A stretch of 29,363 nucleotides of DNA, from IMG/VR virus record IMGVR_UViG_3300029566_000323. One strand, 5' to 3'. This DNA is from a virus. Its lineage: Duplodnaviria > Heunggongvirae > Uroviricota > Caudoviricetes. The position numbers were made by a program, and so were the translations under genes. Below, one piece after another: positions 8,615 through 14,933 of this stretch. The notes beneath the pieces are model-generated. The model saw nothing but the letters and a program-made list of their open reading frames with translations. It was not told where the DNA came from and ran no database searches. Within the stretch, counting starts at the first letter, position 1; each line of letters opens with the position of its first letter.

Positions 8615-8843
8615 ATACAGCGAACGCCATTGGTTTAGTTGGATATTTACTGTGCCGGACAAAAACGGTTTGCGGGGAAATCTTAGTTAAGTAGAATAAC
8701 TGCGGGTGCTTGAGGCTATCTGTCTCAGGCATGAACACCAAAAGGCAGATAGAGAAAAGCCCCAGTTAACATTACGCGTCCTGCAAGACGCTTAACATTA
8801 ATCTGAGGCCATATCTATGCGACACATAGAGATTAGCCTCTTA

Positions 8844-8890
8844 NNNNNNNNNNNNNNNNNNNNNNNNNNNNNNNNNNNNNNNNNNNNNNN
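8844..8890. other. Run of 47 N (assembly gap or masked bases)
   Basis: Literal n characters in the sequence; interrupts the hok-type toxin locus. Confidence 1.
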
Positions 8891-11269: not shown

Positions 11270-11951
11270 CCAGTATTTACAGTTTGTTCGTGAGCAACTC
11301 ATGATTGCCACTGCAGATCTCAGTGGGTCGACAAAATGCCAGCTGGAAGCCTGGCAGGAAAATGCCCTGTTCGATACAGGGCGTTACAGACGCAAAAAAA
11401 TTCGTTACCGCGATGAGGTAACCGGAAAAATGATCACGCGGGATAATCCCCCGATCCAGGGTAAACAATCACTGGCGAAAGGCTCATCAATTGCGCTGGT
11501 CAGTCCTGTTGAGTTTGCAACATCATCGTGGCGGCGTGCTGTTCTGGAACTGGAAGAACATCAGAAGGCGTGGTTGTTGTGGTGTTATGGCGGAAACATT
11601 TGCTGGGAGCATCAGATCGCGATAACGCAGTGGGGGTGGAGTGAATTTAAAACTCAGTCCGGCTCCAGAAAAATTGCAGTGAAAACGCTGGAGCGTGTGA
11701 AGAAGTTGATCTGGCTGGCGGCACAGGATGTCAGAGGATGGGTTACCGGGTGTGAGGTCTACCAGAGACAGGAGCTTGCCAGACTGTGTGGAGTTAAGCC
11801 TGATAACTGGAGCCATAATTATGCGAACTACTGGCGTGAGATGTGCGATATTTTTAAGCGCCTCGATAGAGAATCCTTGATTTGCTCCGTGAAAATAAGA
11901 GCGCAACAAAAAGCGACCTTTTCACGACGAGATATTGCAAAAGTCAATTAA
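11262..11951 (+). CDS. Late-gene antitermination protein Q-like
   Basis: Position immediately after rusA and immediately before a short promoter-terminator unit; ~230 aa as expected for Q-family antiterminators; sequence identity to a specific Q type not verified. Confidence 0.7.
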   Translation: MNNQYLQFVREQLMIATADLSGSTKCQLEAWQENALFDTGRYRRKKIRYRDEVTGKMITRDNPPIQGKQSLAKGSSIALVSPVEFATSSWRRAVLELEEHQKAWLLWCYGGNICWEHQIAITQWGWSEFKTQSGSRKIAVKTLERVKKLIWLAAQDVRGWVTGCEVYQRQELARLCGVKPDNWSHNYANYWREMCDIFKRLDRESLICSVKIRAQQKATFSRRDIAKVN

Positions 11952-12012: not shown

Positions 12013-12040
12013 AAAAAACCACCGCCAGGTGGTTTTTTTT
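12013..12040 (+). terminator. tR'-like rho-independent terminator downstream of Q
   Basis: AAAAAACCACC-GCCA-GGTGGTTTTTTTT: perfect stem flanked by A-run and U-run (potentially bidirectional). Confidence 0.7.
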
Positions 12041-12163
12041 ATGTCCGAAAATCGCGTCAGTACAGTAAACGCGCTGGTGGTTGCGAATACGGGTCTTTCA
12101 GCTTGCCGGCTTTTTCGACAAGAGTTATTGGTATGTCACGTTAACCGGAAAAGGGAAAAAGAC

Positions 12164-12361
12164 ATGCTAAAACAGCAGGATATGACAGAAGCCGCCAGAG
12201 TGGTGTTTAATGAATTAAGCGTTACCGACCCGGCGACAGTCAGGGAGATTGCACAGAATACTTACCTTTCACGCGAACGCTGCCAGTTAATACTGACCCA
12301 GCTTGTTATGGCGGGTCTGGCAGACTATCAGTTTGGTTGTTACAGACACCTTCAGTCCTGA
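12164..12361 (+). CDS. Small protein (65 aa), possible winged-helix regulator
   Basis: AAGGGAAAAAG RBS before ATG 12164; product MLKQQDMTEAARVVFNELSVTDPATVREIAQNTYLSRERCQLILTQLVMAGLADYQF resembles small wHTH regulators (FaeA/PapI-like pattern); tentative. Confidence 0.45.
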   Translation: MLKQQDMTEAARVVFNELSVTDPATVREIAQNTYLSRERCQLILTQLVMAGLADYQFGCYRHLQS

Positions 12362-12674
12362 AGGCTTTTTTATTTGTGGTAAATGGGCGGCTGGTGGGTG
12401 TGGTGGTTGTTGCTTTCCCGTTGCTGAAAAAGAAAACGCCAGACTGTTAGCCGGGTATCAGTTAGCGGGAGAAATTTTTAAATACTTCACAATTCAGGCG
12501 GTTGACTGTTGTCTGGTTTGCGGGGAGTTTGTTAAAAGAAACTGGCATGGTGAATCCCCCTGTGCGGAGGGGCAATCAGCGAGTAGGTATATGGGATAAT
12601 CGCGGATTCAGGTGCTGGTACTGAATTCACCGGGAGGCACCCGGCACCATGCAATGGCACATAGCGCCACTCTC

Positions 12675-12705
12675 CAGCCCCTCTCCGGAGGGGCTGTTTA
12701 TATTG
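12675..12705 (+). terminator. Terminator-like hairpin closing the structured noncoding stretch
   Basis: CAGCCCC-TCTCCGGA-GGGGCTG followed by TTTATATTGATTTT. Confidence 0.5.
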
Positions 12706-12730
12706 ATTTTGTCAGATGTGAGTAAACTCC

Positions 12731-13066
12731 TTATGGACTTTGTTGTTTTAGCCCATAAGGACATATTTGCAGAGTGCAACGGTTATTAAAGCATTCATTC
12801 AATACGTTATCTGTATTTGTAGGGCATTCCTGGCTGTTTTTGATTAAATTCCAGAATGTTTTATTGAATGGTACTACGTTGTAAATGGTTACAGGTAGCA
12901 CTTTGTTATTGAGCATGATACCTGTGTGAGTCAGTGTAAATATACTTTCAGGAGGTAAGAAAGCATCCGATTGATACCAGATTATTAATTTTATTTTACT
13001 CCATATGACTGAAAAAGATATTCCGCATGATGGCTGGATAACTGTATCAATCACAATCCACTTCAT
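12731..13066 (-). CDS. Hypothetical moron protein (111 aa) on the strand opposite to late transcription
   Basis: ORF with AAGGAAA RBS 5 nt upstream of ATG (minus strand); markedly AT-rich gene and upstream region (13067-13320); cysteine-containing product with no recognised family. Confidence 0.55.
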
Positions 13067-13326
13067 TTAGTTTCCTTGTTTATGCCTTGCTGGTGATGTT
13101 CTGAAAAGTATAAATGATATTTTTGATTGTAAACCATAGAGCAGAATTATTTTTCTGATGTTGTTTATTGTTTATTTAAATGCAGGGTGGTTTATATCTC
13201 GTCTTGTAGTTTATCCATGCATATCTGCTTGATGATGAGGTTTTTATTTAAGGTATGGTTTTGTGTTTTTTCTGTATTACATGTCAGGTATTTTAAAGAA
13301 TCATTTTTCAGATGGTGGAAAGAACC

Positions 13327-13515
13327 ATGGCATTTAAACACTATGATGTTGTCAGGGCGGCGTCGCCGTCAGATCTTGCGGAAAAGCTGACACATAAACT
13401 GAAAGAGGGCTGGCAGCCGTTTGGTAGTCCGGTGGCCATAACCCCTTATACCCTGATGCAGGCGATTGCAGCAGAAGGTGATGTGGTGGTCAGTGGTGCA
13501 ACTGAGCCGGAGTGA
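13327..13515 (+). CDS. Small protein (62 aa), DUF1737-like
   Basis: GGTGGAAAG RBS before ATG 13327; product [62 protein letters not shown] resembles small proteins found upstream of lysis genes in lambdoid phages; family call tentative. Confidence 0.6.
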   Translation: MAFKHYDVVRAASPSDLAEKLTHKLKEGWQPFGSPVAITPYTLMQAIAAEGDVVVSGATEPE

Positions 13516-13673
13516 TACTACGTCATCGTACTGGCCCGGCATTCCAGGCCATAAAAGACGGTCTGGCAGTGGGACTAAATGCACTGACGCTGACGGATAT
13601 TACCAAAAATGCAACGTATGGCGTTGAGATAGAAAGTCTGGTGCTGGAGATAAATGCACCGGCATCATCATAA
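13512..13673 (+). CDS. Candidate small ORF (53 codons), translationally coupled
   Basis: GTG overlapping the upstream TGA (GTGA); product (M)[52 protein letters not shown] is protein-like; below the 60-aa ORF-track cutoff. Confidence 0.3.
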
Positions 13674-13758
13674 AAAGTGAGCCAGTCAAATGGAAGGTAT
13701 CGTTAAACTCACCGGTAGTGTCAGTGGGTCGTCTGAGACGCCTGCATGAGTTATCAGA

Positions 13759-13790
13759 GCCATCAGTACTTAACTGGTGGCTTTTTTATT
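13759..13790 (+). terminator. Rho-independent terminator upstream of the holin gene
   Basis: GCCATCAG-TACTTAA-CTGGTGGC (one G-U pair) followed by TTTTTTATT. Confidence 0.55.
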
Positions 13791-13822
13791 GTTGTCAGCT
13801 TCCGGATAACGGGAGACGGGGT

Positions 13823-14038
13823 ATGTACCAGATGGAAAAAATCACAACAGGTGTGTCATACACCACGTCAGCGGTGGGAACGGGCTACTGGTTCCTGCAG
13901 TTGCTGGACAGGGTTTCCCCGTCTCAGTGGGCGGCAATAGGCGTGCTGGGGAGTCTGCTGTTTGGGCTGCTGACATATCTGACTAACCTGTATTTCAAAA
14001 TCAAAGAGGACCGGCGTAAGGCGGCGCGGGGAGAGTAA
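13823..14038 (+). CDS. S: Class II holin, S21-type pinholin with dual start (Met1/Met4)
   Basis: Product [71 protein letters not shown] closely matches remembered phage 21 S21 / EssD pinholin; two in-frame ATGs 9 nt apart. Confidence 0.9.
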
Positions 14039-14042
14039 AGTG

Positions 14043-14933
14043 ATGAATAAAAAATATGAACTGGTTGTTAAGGGGATAAATAATTACGGGGATAAGGTTA
14101 CTGTTACTGTGAAGTCGGAAGGTGACGGGCAAGCGTCGCTGTTGTTGCCAGATGTGGCGATTAGTCTTGACCGTACTGAAGGTGCCACGCTGGAGTTTTA
14201 CGAAGCTGAGGCGAAAAAGCAGGCGAAGCAGTTTTTCATGGATGTTGCTGCCGGGTTATGTGAATGGAACGAACCGTTGCCGGAAAAGCGCCCCGTAATT
14301 TTAGAGGCGCAGGATGTGTTGATAACCTACAAAGGAAAGCTACCGGGAAGAATTACTTGTTCTCTGAAGATGCCGCCGTCAACACTGCGGTCAGAAAAAG
14401 ATGATGTTGAATCACGTATTGAAAAACTGGAGAGCTACGTCGTTGAGCTGAATAAGAAATGGTCGATATTGGTGCCTTCTGGCGATGAAAAGCAGTTTGC
14501 TGCGTTTGACGATTATTGTCGGAAAGTGATGAGCAGAAATCTCGCAGAGTGTTTCAGTATTCATAATGATAATTTCAGTGACCCGGAATGGGAGTGTAAC
14601 CGGCCATCCTTTGTTGTATCCGGTGATGCTGGGAAAATAACCATCTCAGAAAATGGGAAAGTAACACCTCCATCGCACCAGCACAGTGAGGAGCTCATTG
14701 AATTTGCCATTGATTACCTGAAGAACAATAAAAAGCAGGGGCTGATGAAGCGCGTTGGCCGTTGCATGGGATATCTTCAGGTAGCCGCTGAGATTGAAGC
14801 GCTGGCCAGTGGTGCTGATAAGGATGCAATTGTGCGGGAGGCTCTTCTTCGTGATTTTAATACTCCACCCTTTAAAAAAGGGCCGGCTTACTGGCTTCAT
14901 CCGGGGCTGACTTATCTTAAAGTGCGTATTTAG
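14043..14933 (+). CDS. Hypothetical protein (296 aa) inserted between holin and endolysin
   Basis: Intact ORF with GGGAGAG RBS; no signal peptide, no TM segment, no recognised catalytic motif; located where lysis cassettes normally have S directly followed by R. Confidence 0.75.
   Translation: MNKKYELVVKGINNYGDKVTVTVKSEGDGQASLLLPDVAISLDRTEGATLEFYEAEAKKQAKQFFMDVAAGLCEWNEPLPEKRPVILEAQDVLITYKGKLPGRITCSLKMPPSTLRSEKDDVESRIEKLESYVVELNKKWSILVPSGDEKQFAAFDDYCRKVMSRNLAECFSIHNDNFSDPEWECNRPSFVVSGDAGKITISENGKVTPPSHQHSEELIEFAIDYLKNNKKQGLMKRVGRCMGYLQVAAEIEALASGADKDAIVREALLRDFNTPPFKKGPAYWLHPGLTYLKVRI

Follow-up and report, generated by a model that had tools for sequence, protein, structure and literature searches.

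Known cargo elements in the Q-to-holin interval of a Qin-like Escherichia coli prophage: the small RNA STnc100, iraL and a decayed nanS-p esterase gene

Introduction

In lambdoid phages, late transcription halts at the terminator tR' unless the antiterminator Q modifies RNA polymerase. What does such a phage carry directly behind this terminator, ahead of its lysis genes? This question was raised by the virus record IMGVR_UViG_3300029566_000323, a stretch of 29,363 nucleotides (hereafter the window), in which a first-pass annotation made from the sequence alone had singled out the region between Q and the holin gene as the slot where Stx phages keep toxin genes and tRNAs. According to this annotation, the slot held a small winged-helix-like gene, structured noncoding DNA and an AT-rich gene on the opposite strand. 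All features that it claimed were found where it had placed them or a few bases away, and the contents of the slot are already-described cargo, namely the small RNA (sRNA) gene STnc100, the anti-adaptor gene iraL and a decayed esterase gene. The earlier reading was thus correct, and the slot holds nothing new.

Results

The interval between Q and the holin gene

The gene order of the window, DUF968, RusA, Q, P21-type holin, DUF1327/YdfR and lysozyme, is that of a Qin-like lambdoid prophage of E. coli. The Q antiterminator was identified by its match to PF06323 (E = 2e-82). Just 3' of Q, a terminator scan located a tR'-like bidirectional intrinsic terminator on both strands at positions 12013-12040 (AAAAAACCACCGCCAGGTGGTTTTTTTTT), which bounds the cargo slot on the left. 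The right edge is the gene for a P21-type class II holin at 13823-14038 on the plus strand (PF04971, E = 7e-33; also called a class II holin by PGAP). The interval in between very probably serves as a cargo, or "moron", slot where the late operon begins, and it is a mosaic of known elements.

The likeness to Stx phages that had been proposed was borne out by the Stx2d phage Stx2_112808, which shares the tR' terminator and the following 65-aa open reading frame (ORF) with the window (92% identical DNA) and carries these ahead of its tRNAs and stx2AB. This phage has a different Q gene, and its homology to the window begins at 12015. Behind the 65-aa ORF it contains a methylase gene, three tRNA genes, stx2AB, a copy of STnc100 and nanS-p, and the order STnc100, nanS-p, holin gene is common to the Q-to-S cargo region of Stx phages and the window. 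Unlike the Stx-phage cargo, the window carries iraL instead, its nanS-p gene is inactivated, and it is without tRNA genes, toxin and methylase. ARAGORN detected no tRNA gene in the window, and PGAP annotated no toxin gene in a genome identical to it, and a Stx-converting type of cargo with tRNAs and toxin was therefore rejected. A search with PADLOC gave no credible match that would assign a defence role to the 65-aa, IraL or 297-aa proteins.

The region is rich in terminator-like sites, with 8 found against 2.5 ± 1.6 expected from shuffled sequences. Next to the tR'-like terminator and the one that ends STnc100 (see below), the scan found a terminator-like hairpin on the plus strand at 12349-12364 (CCTTCAGTCCTGAAGG followed by CTTTTTTATT), which overlaps the stop codon of the 65-aa ORF, and an intrinsic terminator on the plus strand at 13756-13784, behind the esterase remnant and ahead of the holin gene, with a 12-bp stem and a T-run. 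The latter is the second terminator that had been noticed ahead of the holin gene, at 13759-13790.

The 65-aa ORF and a DUF3927 remnant

The first gene past tR' is the 65-aa conserved phage ORF at 12164-12361 on the plus strand, which was present in the ORF list and is annotated by PGAP in an identical genome. It belongs to phrog_331 (E = 5e-36) and has 274 homologues in Enterobacteriaceae, typically 63-65 aa long. The presence of a conserved ORF at this place was confirmed; the winged-helix label that it had been given rests on sub-threshold Pfam matches only. The best of these is TrmB with 19.4 bits, below the cut-off of 25.6, and six other DNA-binding or HTH-type families matched more weakly and likewise below threshold. 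An AF2 model based on 24 close homologues showed three helices at low confidence (pLDDT 67.5, pTM 0.47) and decided the matter neither way, and a Foldseek search of the PDB with this model returned nothing at an E value below 1. Judged from its sequence, the protein is possibly a small winged-helix DNA-binding protein. Some database records name its homologues "TrmB family".

The DNA behind this gene, 12362-12720, had been read as noncoding. No full-length gene is annotated there, but the first ~90 nt are the 3' remnant of a gene for a DUF3927 small membrane protein (PF13064; ~12385-12450, plus strand), which the earlier reading had missed. The 37-aa ORF at 12337-12450 covers only positions 31-53 of the 53 positions of PF13064, whereas the DUF3927 copies in strains CFT073 and E2348/69 match this family nearly end to end. 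Within the remnant, at ~12392-12401, lies a recombination junction of two phage modules: homology to the Stx2d phage stops at 12401, and homology to CFT073 starts at 12397.

The structured DNA encodes STnc100

The remaining part of this DNA had been described as several hairpins that end in a terminator-like stem-loop at 12675-12705, and a covariance-model scan had been suggested to examine it. Such a scan with cmscan identified an STnc100 sRNA gene (Rfam RF02076) at 12516-12705 on the plus strand, with a score of 132.4 bits against a gathering score of 47 (E = 3e-29), and the model was matched over its full length, positions 1-206 of 206. The terminator proved to consist of a stem at 12675-12696, with 9 bp of which 7 are GC pairs, followed by TTTATATT. 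Moreover, exact matches to the published STnc_100 qPCR primers lie at 12546 and 12619. What had been read as structured noncoding DNA belongs to a genuine sRNA family that was described before. When other RNA families were searched for between 11900 and 13900 at a permissive threshold, only sub-threshold, terminator-driven matches around tR' appeared; these (STnc370, Phe_leader, isrK and RNAI) were rejected as they fell well below their own gathering scores.

An alignment to PasD2, whose 5' end was defined by RNA-seq, indicates that the RNA probably extends from about 12545 to 12705 (~160 nt). Within it, an 8-bp closing stem encloses a domain of several hairpins, and a variable 3' part and the terminator come behind this domain. 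The predicted fold of 12545-12705 has a minimum free energy of -69.5 kcal/mol (z = -2.96), which none of 200 shuffled sequences equalled. If homologous regions lacked a conserved secondary structure, this would have spoken against a structured RNA, but the structure covaries. In a consensus built from 24 distinct variants, 98.2% of the cells were paired, compared to 37-48% when the pairing partner was slid, and in helix 3 six of the eight pairs showed compensatory changes on both sides. None of 500 shuffles reached the observed pairing and covariation values, and these also exceeded all slid controls, with the caveat that the pattern by which the sequences had been retrieved prescribed the 5' strands of helices 1 and 2.

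Upstream of the RNA lies a putative sigma-70 promoter at 12509-12538 on the plus strand, with the candidate -35 hexamer TTGTCT (12509-12514), a spacer of 18 bp and a candidate extended -10 element TGtTAAAAG (12531-12538). The -10 lacks the usual final T, and a simple consensus scan made no call here. Nevertheless, in 48 distinct upstream sequences, among them those of PasD-type loci, an TTTGTTAAAA / TTTATTAAAA element and a TTG-containing -35 keep a constant spacing to the GCATGGTG 5' end.

A lack of any transcript from 12362-12720 would also have spoken against the RNA, but homologous copies of STnc100 are transcribed according to published work. Strain EDL933 has 11 copies, which are transcribed and of which one was verified by Northern blotting (PMC5331693). 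The homologue EcOnc27/sRNA103 of EHEC, located downstream of stx2B, binds Hfq (PMC12711010); it has the same architecture and the same late-region position upstream of nanS-p as the copy in the window. RpoD binding has been illustrated at Salmonella STnc100 copies (PMC10794520), and overall a discrete, Hfq-associated RNA has been reported for the homologues in EDL933, Sakai and Salmonella (PMC5331693, PMC12711010, PMC10794520). Past the closing stem, the 3' part of these RNAs differs in a mosaic manner from one family member to the next, and for this reason the targets of other copies need not hold for the variant in the window.

The sRNAs PasD1 and PasD2 of EPEC strain E2348/69 (Pearl Mizrahi 2021; Zhu, Shabalina and Storz 2026 preprint) are related to this RNA. 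They share the 5' end GCATGGTGAATCC..., the closing-stem architecture and the promoter geometry with STnc100 of the window, and both lie after a DUF3927 gene and before nanS-p. However, BLAST aligned only the first 26-29 nt (86% identity), the remainder being unrelated, and gave no match to the PasD 3' part, where the reported seed is located. The PasD2 locus falls short of the Rfam STnc100 threshold. As the alignment is limited to the first ~29 nt, an identification of the sRNA as PasD was rejected.

The opposite-strand gene is iraL

The 111-aa gene on the minus strand at 12731-13066, which had been described as AT-rich, with its own ribosome binding site (RBS) and an AT-rich upstream region, is iraL, coding for the RssB anti-adaptor IraL. 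The product matches NCBIfam family NF007393 (PRK09919) with 162 bits against a cut-off of 121 (E = 4.7e-48) over positions 1-110 of 114, and it is 100% identical to IraL of CFT073, sharing the RefSeq entry WP_000871291.1. Alleles count as iraL when they are at least 95% identical to the CFT073 gene, and the copy in the window falls in this class and not in that of iraM. A search of the PDB matched it to IraM (8TWD, E = 9e-32), and a search of Pfam gave no match, the family being present only in NCBIfam and PHROGs. The RBS reads AAGGA. A GC comparison, which had been proposed as a check, gave 34.5% for the iraL coding sequence and 29.4% for its upstream region, compared to 48-55% for the flanking features and 50.6% for the window. 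Disruption of the 111-aa ORF in relatives would have argued against the proposed cargo unit; in related loci, the reading frame is unbroken in each of the 24 full-length copies, and their codon differences comprise 31 synonymous and 19 non-synonymous ones.

IraL of CFT073 was shown in 2014 to bind RssB and to stabilise sigma-S in the logarithmic phase, and its gene has its own sigma-70-type promoter with an experimentally mapped start (PMC4045071). A run of 30 nt from the published 5' end of the mRNA recurs without change in the window, and by identity with this 5'-RACE-mapped end the transcription start of iraL lies at 13099 on the minus strand (PMC4045071), 7 nt downstream of the -10 element TATACT (13113-13108). 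Along the mRNA 5' end, CFT073 and the window differ in one base, just before the start codon. Over the whole interval from -60 to +35 there are three SNPs relative to CFT073: just past the TTTACA -35-like hexamer, at -1, and between the RBS and the ATG. They leave the TATACT -10, the TTTACA hexamer and the RBS intact. No convincing terminator was found for iraL on the minus strand; read in reverse, the STnc100 hairpin is followed by GAGAGTGG, and there is no U-tract.

In CFT073, iraL has the same neighbours as in the window (DUF3927, STnc100, iraL, a truncated DUF1737 gene, the 53-aa ORF described below and the holin gene), with an equal gap of 25 nt between STnc100 and iraL. The slot diverges in its upstream part, where CFT073 carries IS200C and three tRNAs in place of the 65-aa ORF and also has a different type of Q. 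Hryckowian et al. (2014, mBio; PMC4045071) named this site the "potB genomic island" and not a late-operon prophage slot. IraM of K-12, a PhoP-induced RssB anti-adaptor, belongs to the same NF007393 family and is 62% identical to IraL over 107 residues, and both genes lie in or beside prophage DNA. IraL acts in the logarithmic phase and contacts RssB differently from IraM (PMC4045071). At the DNA level, homology between K-12 iraM and iraL is confined to the coding sequence (72% over 330 nt), and their regulatory regions are therefore unrelated. STnc100 was also looked for beside K-12 iraM and is absent there.

iraL lies in an AT-rich cassette of 624 bp (12702-13325; 32.7% GC), which separates the terminator of STnc100 from the start codon of nanS-p; the 500 nt on either side have 50.4% and 50.2% GC. 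In viral contigs that lack iraL, homology to the window ends at 12701 and resumes at 13326, with an unrelated spacer of 225 nt in between. The gene thus sits between genes that are adjacent in related phages and differs from its flanks in composition, as is typical of a moron; of the promoter and terminator of a moron, the former is given by the published start, and a minus-strand terminator is not evident. The proposal that this is an independently acquired and separately regulated cargo unit fits these data, with a low-GC cassette that is missing from collinear phages and a gene identical to that of CFT073, for which the promoter has been mapped. The evidence supports iraL as an independently acquired, separately transcribed cargo unit.

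Among complete E. coli genomes, iraL is present in 1446 of 5426 (~27%), and STnc100 and iraL are contiguous in 1443, essentially all of the carriers. Many genomes have an allele that is 100% identical over the whole region; E. coli 7/2 and AR_0067 are among the strains with precisely this DNA. Prophages that carry iraL include inducible phages such as vB_EcoS-640R1.

A decayed nanS-p gene

The first-pass annotation overlooked the nanS-p esterase pseudogene at 13327-13673, which has suffered a nonsense codon and an internal deletion of ~1.49 kb. Its 5' fragment at 13327-13515 on the plus strand derives from a SASA sialate O-acetylesterase gene and has kept the DUF1737 domain (PF08410, E = 4e-17). 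Compared to the intact gene for 616 aa on viral contig L009, it ends in a TGG to TGA change (W63*) at 13513-13515. PGAP flags this fragment as incomplete. The deletion junction lies at 13531-13552, in a short imperfect repeat, GGCC[G/C]GGCA[G/T]TCCA, where the two segments that BLAST aligns to intact esterase genes overlap; genomes with an intact nanS-p gene beside iraL match the window only up to 13552. The deletion has removed the SASA domain. What follows is a 53-aa ORF at 13512-13673 on the plus strand, which is the in-frame 3' end of nanS-p (phrog_143 positions 582-632 of 634); the esterase gene of E2348/69 is 91% identical to it at its own 3' end.

The 53-aa ORF has kept the site reported as a target of PasA, at 13628-13658 (target sequence from the supplement of PMC8550237). 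PasA and PasC are antisense RNAs located between esterase and holin genes. Their presence at this position was rejected, as BLAST gave no significant match to them anywhere in the window; the sole terminator in 13674-13822 is on the plus strand.

Discussion

When these elements are combined with what is known of lambdoid phages, the following order of events can be proposed. Late transcription would start downstream of Q and would be stopped at the tR'-like terminator when Q modification is absent. The conserved 65-aa ORF is the first gene past this terminator. In the lysogen, STnc100 would be made as an sRNA of ~160 nt from its own putative promoter and would end at its own terminator. iraL, on the opposite strand in its low-GC cassette, would be expressed from its own sigma-70 promoter, and IraL would bind the adaptor RssB and block delivery of sigma-S (RpoS) to ClpXP, so that sigma-S levels rise in growing cells. 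This activity was demonstrated experimentally for the identical CFT073 protein (PMC4045071), and by extension it is expected in the strain from which the window derives, where the promoter differs at three positions. The next cargo gene, nanS-p, has decayed to a pseudogene, and the last terminator would insulate the holin-endolysin cassette from transcription of the cargo region. All four terminators would be passed by Q-modified polymerase only.

A different role for STnc100 might be that it acts mainly in cis in the late operon, either as a structured leader with a terminator that blocks unmodified polymerase, or as a processing or stability element. Its location within the late transcription unit with a strong terminator at its end would suit such a role, as would the recurrence of STnc100 copies, at times in tandem, directly ahead of nanS-p or the lysis genes, and the fact that conservation is highest in the structured 5' domain rather than in an obvious single-stranded seed. 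However, the homologues are found as discrete, Hfq-bound RNAs in uninduced lysogens (PMC5331693, PMC12711010), RIL-seq has given many partners for the related PasD RNAs (PMC8550237), and a promoter-like element is present at a constant distance from the STnc100 5' end. We therefore consider a mainly cis-acting element unlikely, while noting that cis and trans roles can coexist. That iraL is a silent or non-functional passenger with an inactive promoter variant, and without effect on sigma-S in its host, seems very unlikely to us. There are indeed the three SNPs between -60 and +35 relative to the tested CFT073 allele, a -35 variant in the ST131 strain JJ1886 has been flagged, its expression being untested in that study (PMC4045071), and the adjoining cargo, nanS-p and DUF3927, is visibly decaying. 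On the other hand, the coding sequence is identical to that of the functional CFT073 protein, and the -10, the -35-like hexamer and the RBS are preserved. The intact reading frame in 24 of 24 full-length copies, the excess of synonymous over non-synonymous codon differences (31 versus 19) and the occurrence of a fully identical whole-region allele in many genomes also argue against a passenger.

The convergent arrangement of STnc100 and iraL, 25 nt apart, could also mean that the two form a coupled module based on antisense pairing or transcriptional interference. As a good terminator is missing for iraL, transcription of this gene would be expected to continue into STnc100 in the antisense direction, and in an induced prophage Q-modified late transcription would pass head-on through iraL. 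If so, the prophage could link sigma-S stabilisation to whether it is in the lysogenic or the lytic state, and could make sRNA levels depend on the activity of iraL. The contiguity of both genes in 1443 of the 1446 genomes with iraL would agree with this, yet identity among nearly all iraL alleles is 95% or more (see also PMC4045071), which makes a single recent insertion the simplest account of the linkage. Moreover, the same STnc100 variant is found without iraL, and CFT073 iraL was complemented in single copy at attTn7 in the absence of STnc100 (PMC4045071). Such a coupled module is, in our view, highly improbable. We thus favour two separate cargo elements, an sRNA gene with its own putative promoter and terminator, and an independently acquired iraL gene.

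The value of this analysis lies mainly in annotation, and long-standing questions are neither opened nor closed by the window. It places iraL, described in 2014 as a gene of a genomic island, as a classic moron in the lambdoid Q-to-holin slot. The linkage of iraL and STnc100 across genomes implies that a phage gene that raises sigma-S during growth spreads horizontally together with a regulatory RNA, and this spread of iraL is relevant to differences in stress resistance between strains.

Organization of the prophage and its cargo slot

The window represents an E. coli prophage of the lambdoid group, marked as Qin-like by DicF and sok in the window and by hokD and rem in an identical genome. 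The DicF sRNA lies at 360-411 on the minus strand (RF00039, 61 bits) and the sok antitoxin RNA at 8704-8861 on the plus strand (RF01794, 81 bits), the latter match extending into 47 N, masked or unknown bases, at 8844-8890 within the hok/sok locus. Many complete genomes, e.g. NZ_CP023820, match the interval 12041-13822 with 100% identity, and at least 80% of this interval was found in 618 of 5426 genomes. It is preceded by DUF968, RusA and antiterminator Q (PF06323), and followed by a P21-type holin, a DUF1327/YdfR protein and lysozyme. In the gap between holin and lysozyme, 14040-14933 (+) is an unbroken 297-aa ORF with a DUF1327 N-terminus and a full-length match to phrog_1085 (E 8e-190). 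Here PGAP gives only a partial 'YdfR family' pseudogene, leaving ~600 nt without annotation; this ORF may be a second cargo position within the lysis cassette.

The features listed in the first-pass annotation, a 65-aa ORF, a gene-poor stretch ending in a terminator, a minus-strand 111-aa ORF and a second terminator, were all recovered where it had placed them. The region has an excess of terminator-like sites (8 versus 2.5 ± 1.6 in shuffles), and the terminator scan placed four on the plus strand: the tR'-like terminator (12013-12040), one at 12349-12364, one at the end of the stretch without an annotated full-length gene (12675-12696), and the second terminator (13756-13784). The window contains no tRNA genes and no toxin gene. 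The proposal that this is the slot used by Stx phages for toxins and tRNAs is nevertheless correct, since the segment 12015-12401, comprising the tR'-like terminator and the 65-aa ORF, shows 92% DNA identity to Stx2 phages with a different Q gene, and in the Stx2d phage Stx2_112808 a methylase, three tRNAs, stx2AB, an STnc100 copy and nanS-p come after this block. In the same slot of uropathogenic E. coli CFT073 (L006), an STnc490 match (146 bits, 11567-11690) lies directly before an IS200C copy and upstream of three tRNA genes.

The 65-aa ORF (12164-12361, +) is conserved: it is a member of phrog_331, a family of unknown function (E 5e-36), and 274 homologues, typically 63-65 aa long and sharing a strongly conserved core, occur in E. 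coli, Shigella, Salmonella, Klebsiella, Citrobacter and Buttiauxella. Its description as winged-helix-like is plausible but unproven, because the Pfam matches (TrmB, HTH_24, MarR_2, DprA_WH, Crp and Rrf2) were all below threshold, the three-helix AlphaFold model is of low confidence (pLDDT 67.5, pTM 0.47), and Foldseek found no match for this model in the PDB. Some database records name the homologues 'TrmB family'.

Downstream, homology to Stx phages stops at 12401 and homology to CFT073 starts at 12397, and this recombination junction coincides with a 3' remnant of a DUF3927 gene (12385-12450, +). The remnant ORF covers only profile positions 31-53 of 53, whereas the copies in CFT073 and E2348/69 cover almost the whole profile. 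The ~360 nt regarded as lacking a convincing ORF thus include a gene remnant, although they hold no annotated full-length gene and do contain an sRNA.

The noncoding stretch encodes an STnc100 sRNA

A covariance-model scan of the stretch predicted to be structured noncoding DNA gave a full-length match to STnc100 (RF02076) at 12516-12705 (+), with 132.4 bits versus a threshold of 47, and published STnc_100 qPCR primers match the window exactly. Alignment with PasD2, an sRNA of E2348/69 whose 5' end was defined by RNA-seq, puts the probable start of the RNA at 12545. In the predicted fold of the 161-nt RNA, an 8-bp closing stem encloses several hairpins, and a small hairpin and the terminator come next (-69.5 kcal/mol, z -2.96). 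We gathered 85 distinct variants from viral contigs, and a consensus structure on 24 diverse 5' domains was 98.2% paired, versus 37-48% with the partner slid, and helix 3 showed six pairs with compensatory changes, all measures being above 500 shuffles; the information lies in helices 3 and 4 alone, as the variant search pattern dictated the 5' strands of helices 1 and 2. Upstream, divergent variants, PasD-type loci among them, share a TG-extended TAAAA(G/A) element and a TTG-containing -35 whose distance from the 5' end does not vary, which supports a promoter of its own for STnc100.

A 37-aa GTG ORF (12612-12725, +) lies within STnc100, and 'tatgggata', listed as a Shine-Dalgarno-like motif in a RIBOseq study of EDL933 that found sizeable ribosome coverage for some STnc100 copies, occurs at 12586-12594. 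The compensatory changes seen in helix 3 speak for selection acting on the RNA. Comparison of 12545-12705 with the 85 variants shows a mosaic family: the closing stem, the first hairpin and the CCGGGAGGCACCCGG hairpin are nearly invariant, and the second arm and the 3' part beyond CACCAUGC are exchanged among variants. Some phages carry tandem pairs that differ in their middle and 3' parts, such as contig L005 (2624-2817 and 3093-3281, ~470 nt apart), and also L014, L023, L033 and L046.

In EDL933, 11 STnc100 copies are transcribed, one confirmed by Northern blot (PMC5331693). The Hfq-binding EcOnc27/sRNA103 overlaps with the copy 3' of stx2B (PMC12711010). Multiple copies occur in Salmonella LT2, with RpoD and RpoN binding illustrated at their promoter regions (PMC10794520). 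A 2026 preprint relates STnc100 to PasD (10.64898/2026.05.13.724894), but the window copy is not PasD itself, because only ~29 nt align. Nothing in the window matched PasA or PasC by BLAST.

An iraL gene on the opposite strand

The 111-aa gene (12731-13066, -) is iraL, encoding an RssB anti-adaptor. The protein matches NCBIfam NF007393, 'anti-adapter protein IraM' (162 bits, cut-off 121), and 8TWD, the solved N-terminal domain of IraM, shares 62% identity with K-12 IraM, and is 100% identical to CFT073 IraL (same RefSeq accession), which binds RssB and stabilises sigma-S in log phase (Hryckowian et al., PMC4045071). That study mapped the CFT073 start by 5' RACE, and 30 nt of the published 5' end occur exactly in the window, placing +1 at 13099 (-); this bears out the suggestion of a separately regulated unit. 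The allele has a TATACT -10 and an AAGGA RBS and differs from that of CFT073 by three SNPs within -60 to +35. Homology to K-12 iraM is confined to the coding region, hence the regulatory DNA of iraL is distinct, which matches the differing induction conditions reported for iraM and iraL. Disruption of the ORF in relatives, named beforehand as counting against a cargo gene, was not found: all 24 full-length copies in the fetched loci were intact. The viral contig L038 carries an iraL/iraM-like gene (12420-12745) with just 78% DNA identity to iraL, compared to at least 90% for iraL genome matches and 72% for K-12 iraM, so that the IraL/IraM family may have further phage-borne members.

In viral contigs with the same STnc100 variant but without iraL, homology ends at 12701 and restarts at 13326 past an unrelated 225-nt spacer, which delimits an iraL cassette of 624 bp (12702-13325) with 32.7% GC between flanks of 50%, as expected for the acquired, low-GC, opposite-strand cargo proposed initially. 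In L013 (IMGVR_UViG_2585427777_000019) this spacer (minus strand, ~60-290 nt downstream of offset 4917) has an opposite-strand hairpin with an A-run, closely like the E2348C_1409/1408 intergenic sRNA candidate (Pearl Mizrahi et al.), and the slot therefore seems to hold opposite-strand cargo with or without iraL.

Past the cassette lies a nanS-p (SASA esterase) pseudogene, 13327-13673 (+), missed by the first-pass annotation. It consists of a DUF1737 fragment, corresponding to the first ~60 residues of the esterase, and a 53-aa ORF corresponding to the last ~50. Contig L009 has an intact, iraL-linked gene of 616 aa; relative to this gene, the pseudogene carries TGG>TGA at codon 63 and has lost ~1.49 kb at a short imperfect repeat (13531-13552). 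The deleted form is found in 726 genomes, about half of the iraL loci, and others have an intact esterase. The remnant retains, at 13628-13658, the reported PasA/PasC RIL-seq target sequence GAUAGAAAGU CUGGUGCUGGA GAUAAAUGCA in a window that has neither sRNA gene.

Linkage of iraL and STnc100

iraL with its promoter was found in 1446 of 5426 complete genomes and on the induced phage vB_EcoS-640R1. Its linkage to STnc100 is near-perfect (contiguous in 1443 genomes), which is compatible with functional coupling of the two, but a single recent insertion is the simpler account, since almost all iraL alleles share at least 95% identity. Moreover, the same STnc100 variant also occurs without iraL, and iraL complementation worked in single copy, apart from STnc100 (PMC4045071). 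We thus consider coupling improbable. No iraL terminator was evident, so its mRNA should, judging from the sequence, run antisense into STnc100, 25 nt away.

In this strain, iraL and STnc100 would each be expressed from their own promoter in the lysogen, and the four plus-strand terminators would silence the lysis cassette until read-through by Q-modified polymerase. IraL sequesters RssB so that sigma-S escapes ClpXP, as established for the identical protein (PMC4045071). The initial observation is confirmed and its interpretation supported. iraL, STnc100, nanS-p and the Q-to-S cargo slot have all been described previously; the modest additions made here are precise boundaries for the cassette, the invariable linkage of iraL to STnc100, the nature of the pseudogenes, and the conserved promoter geometry of the STnc100/PasD family.
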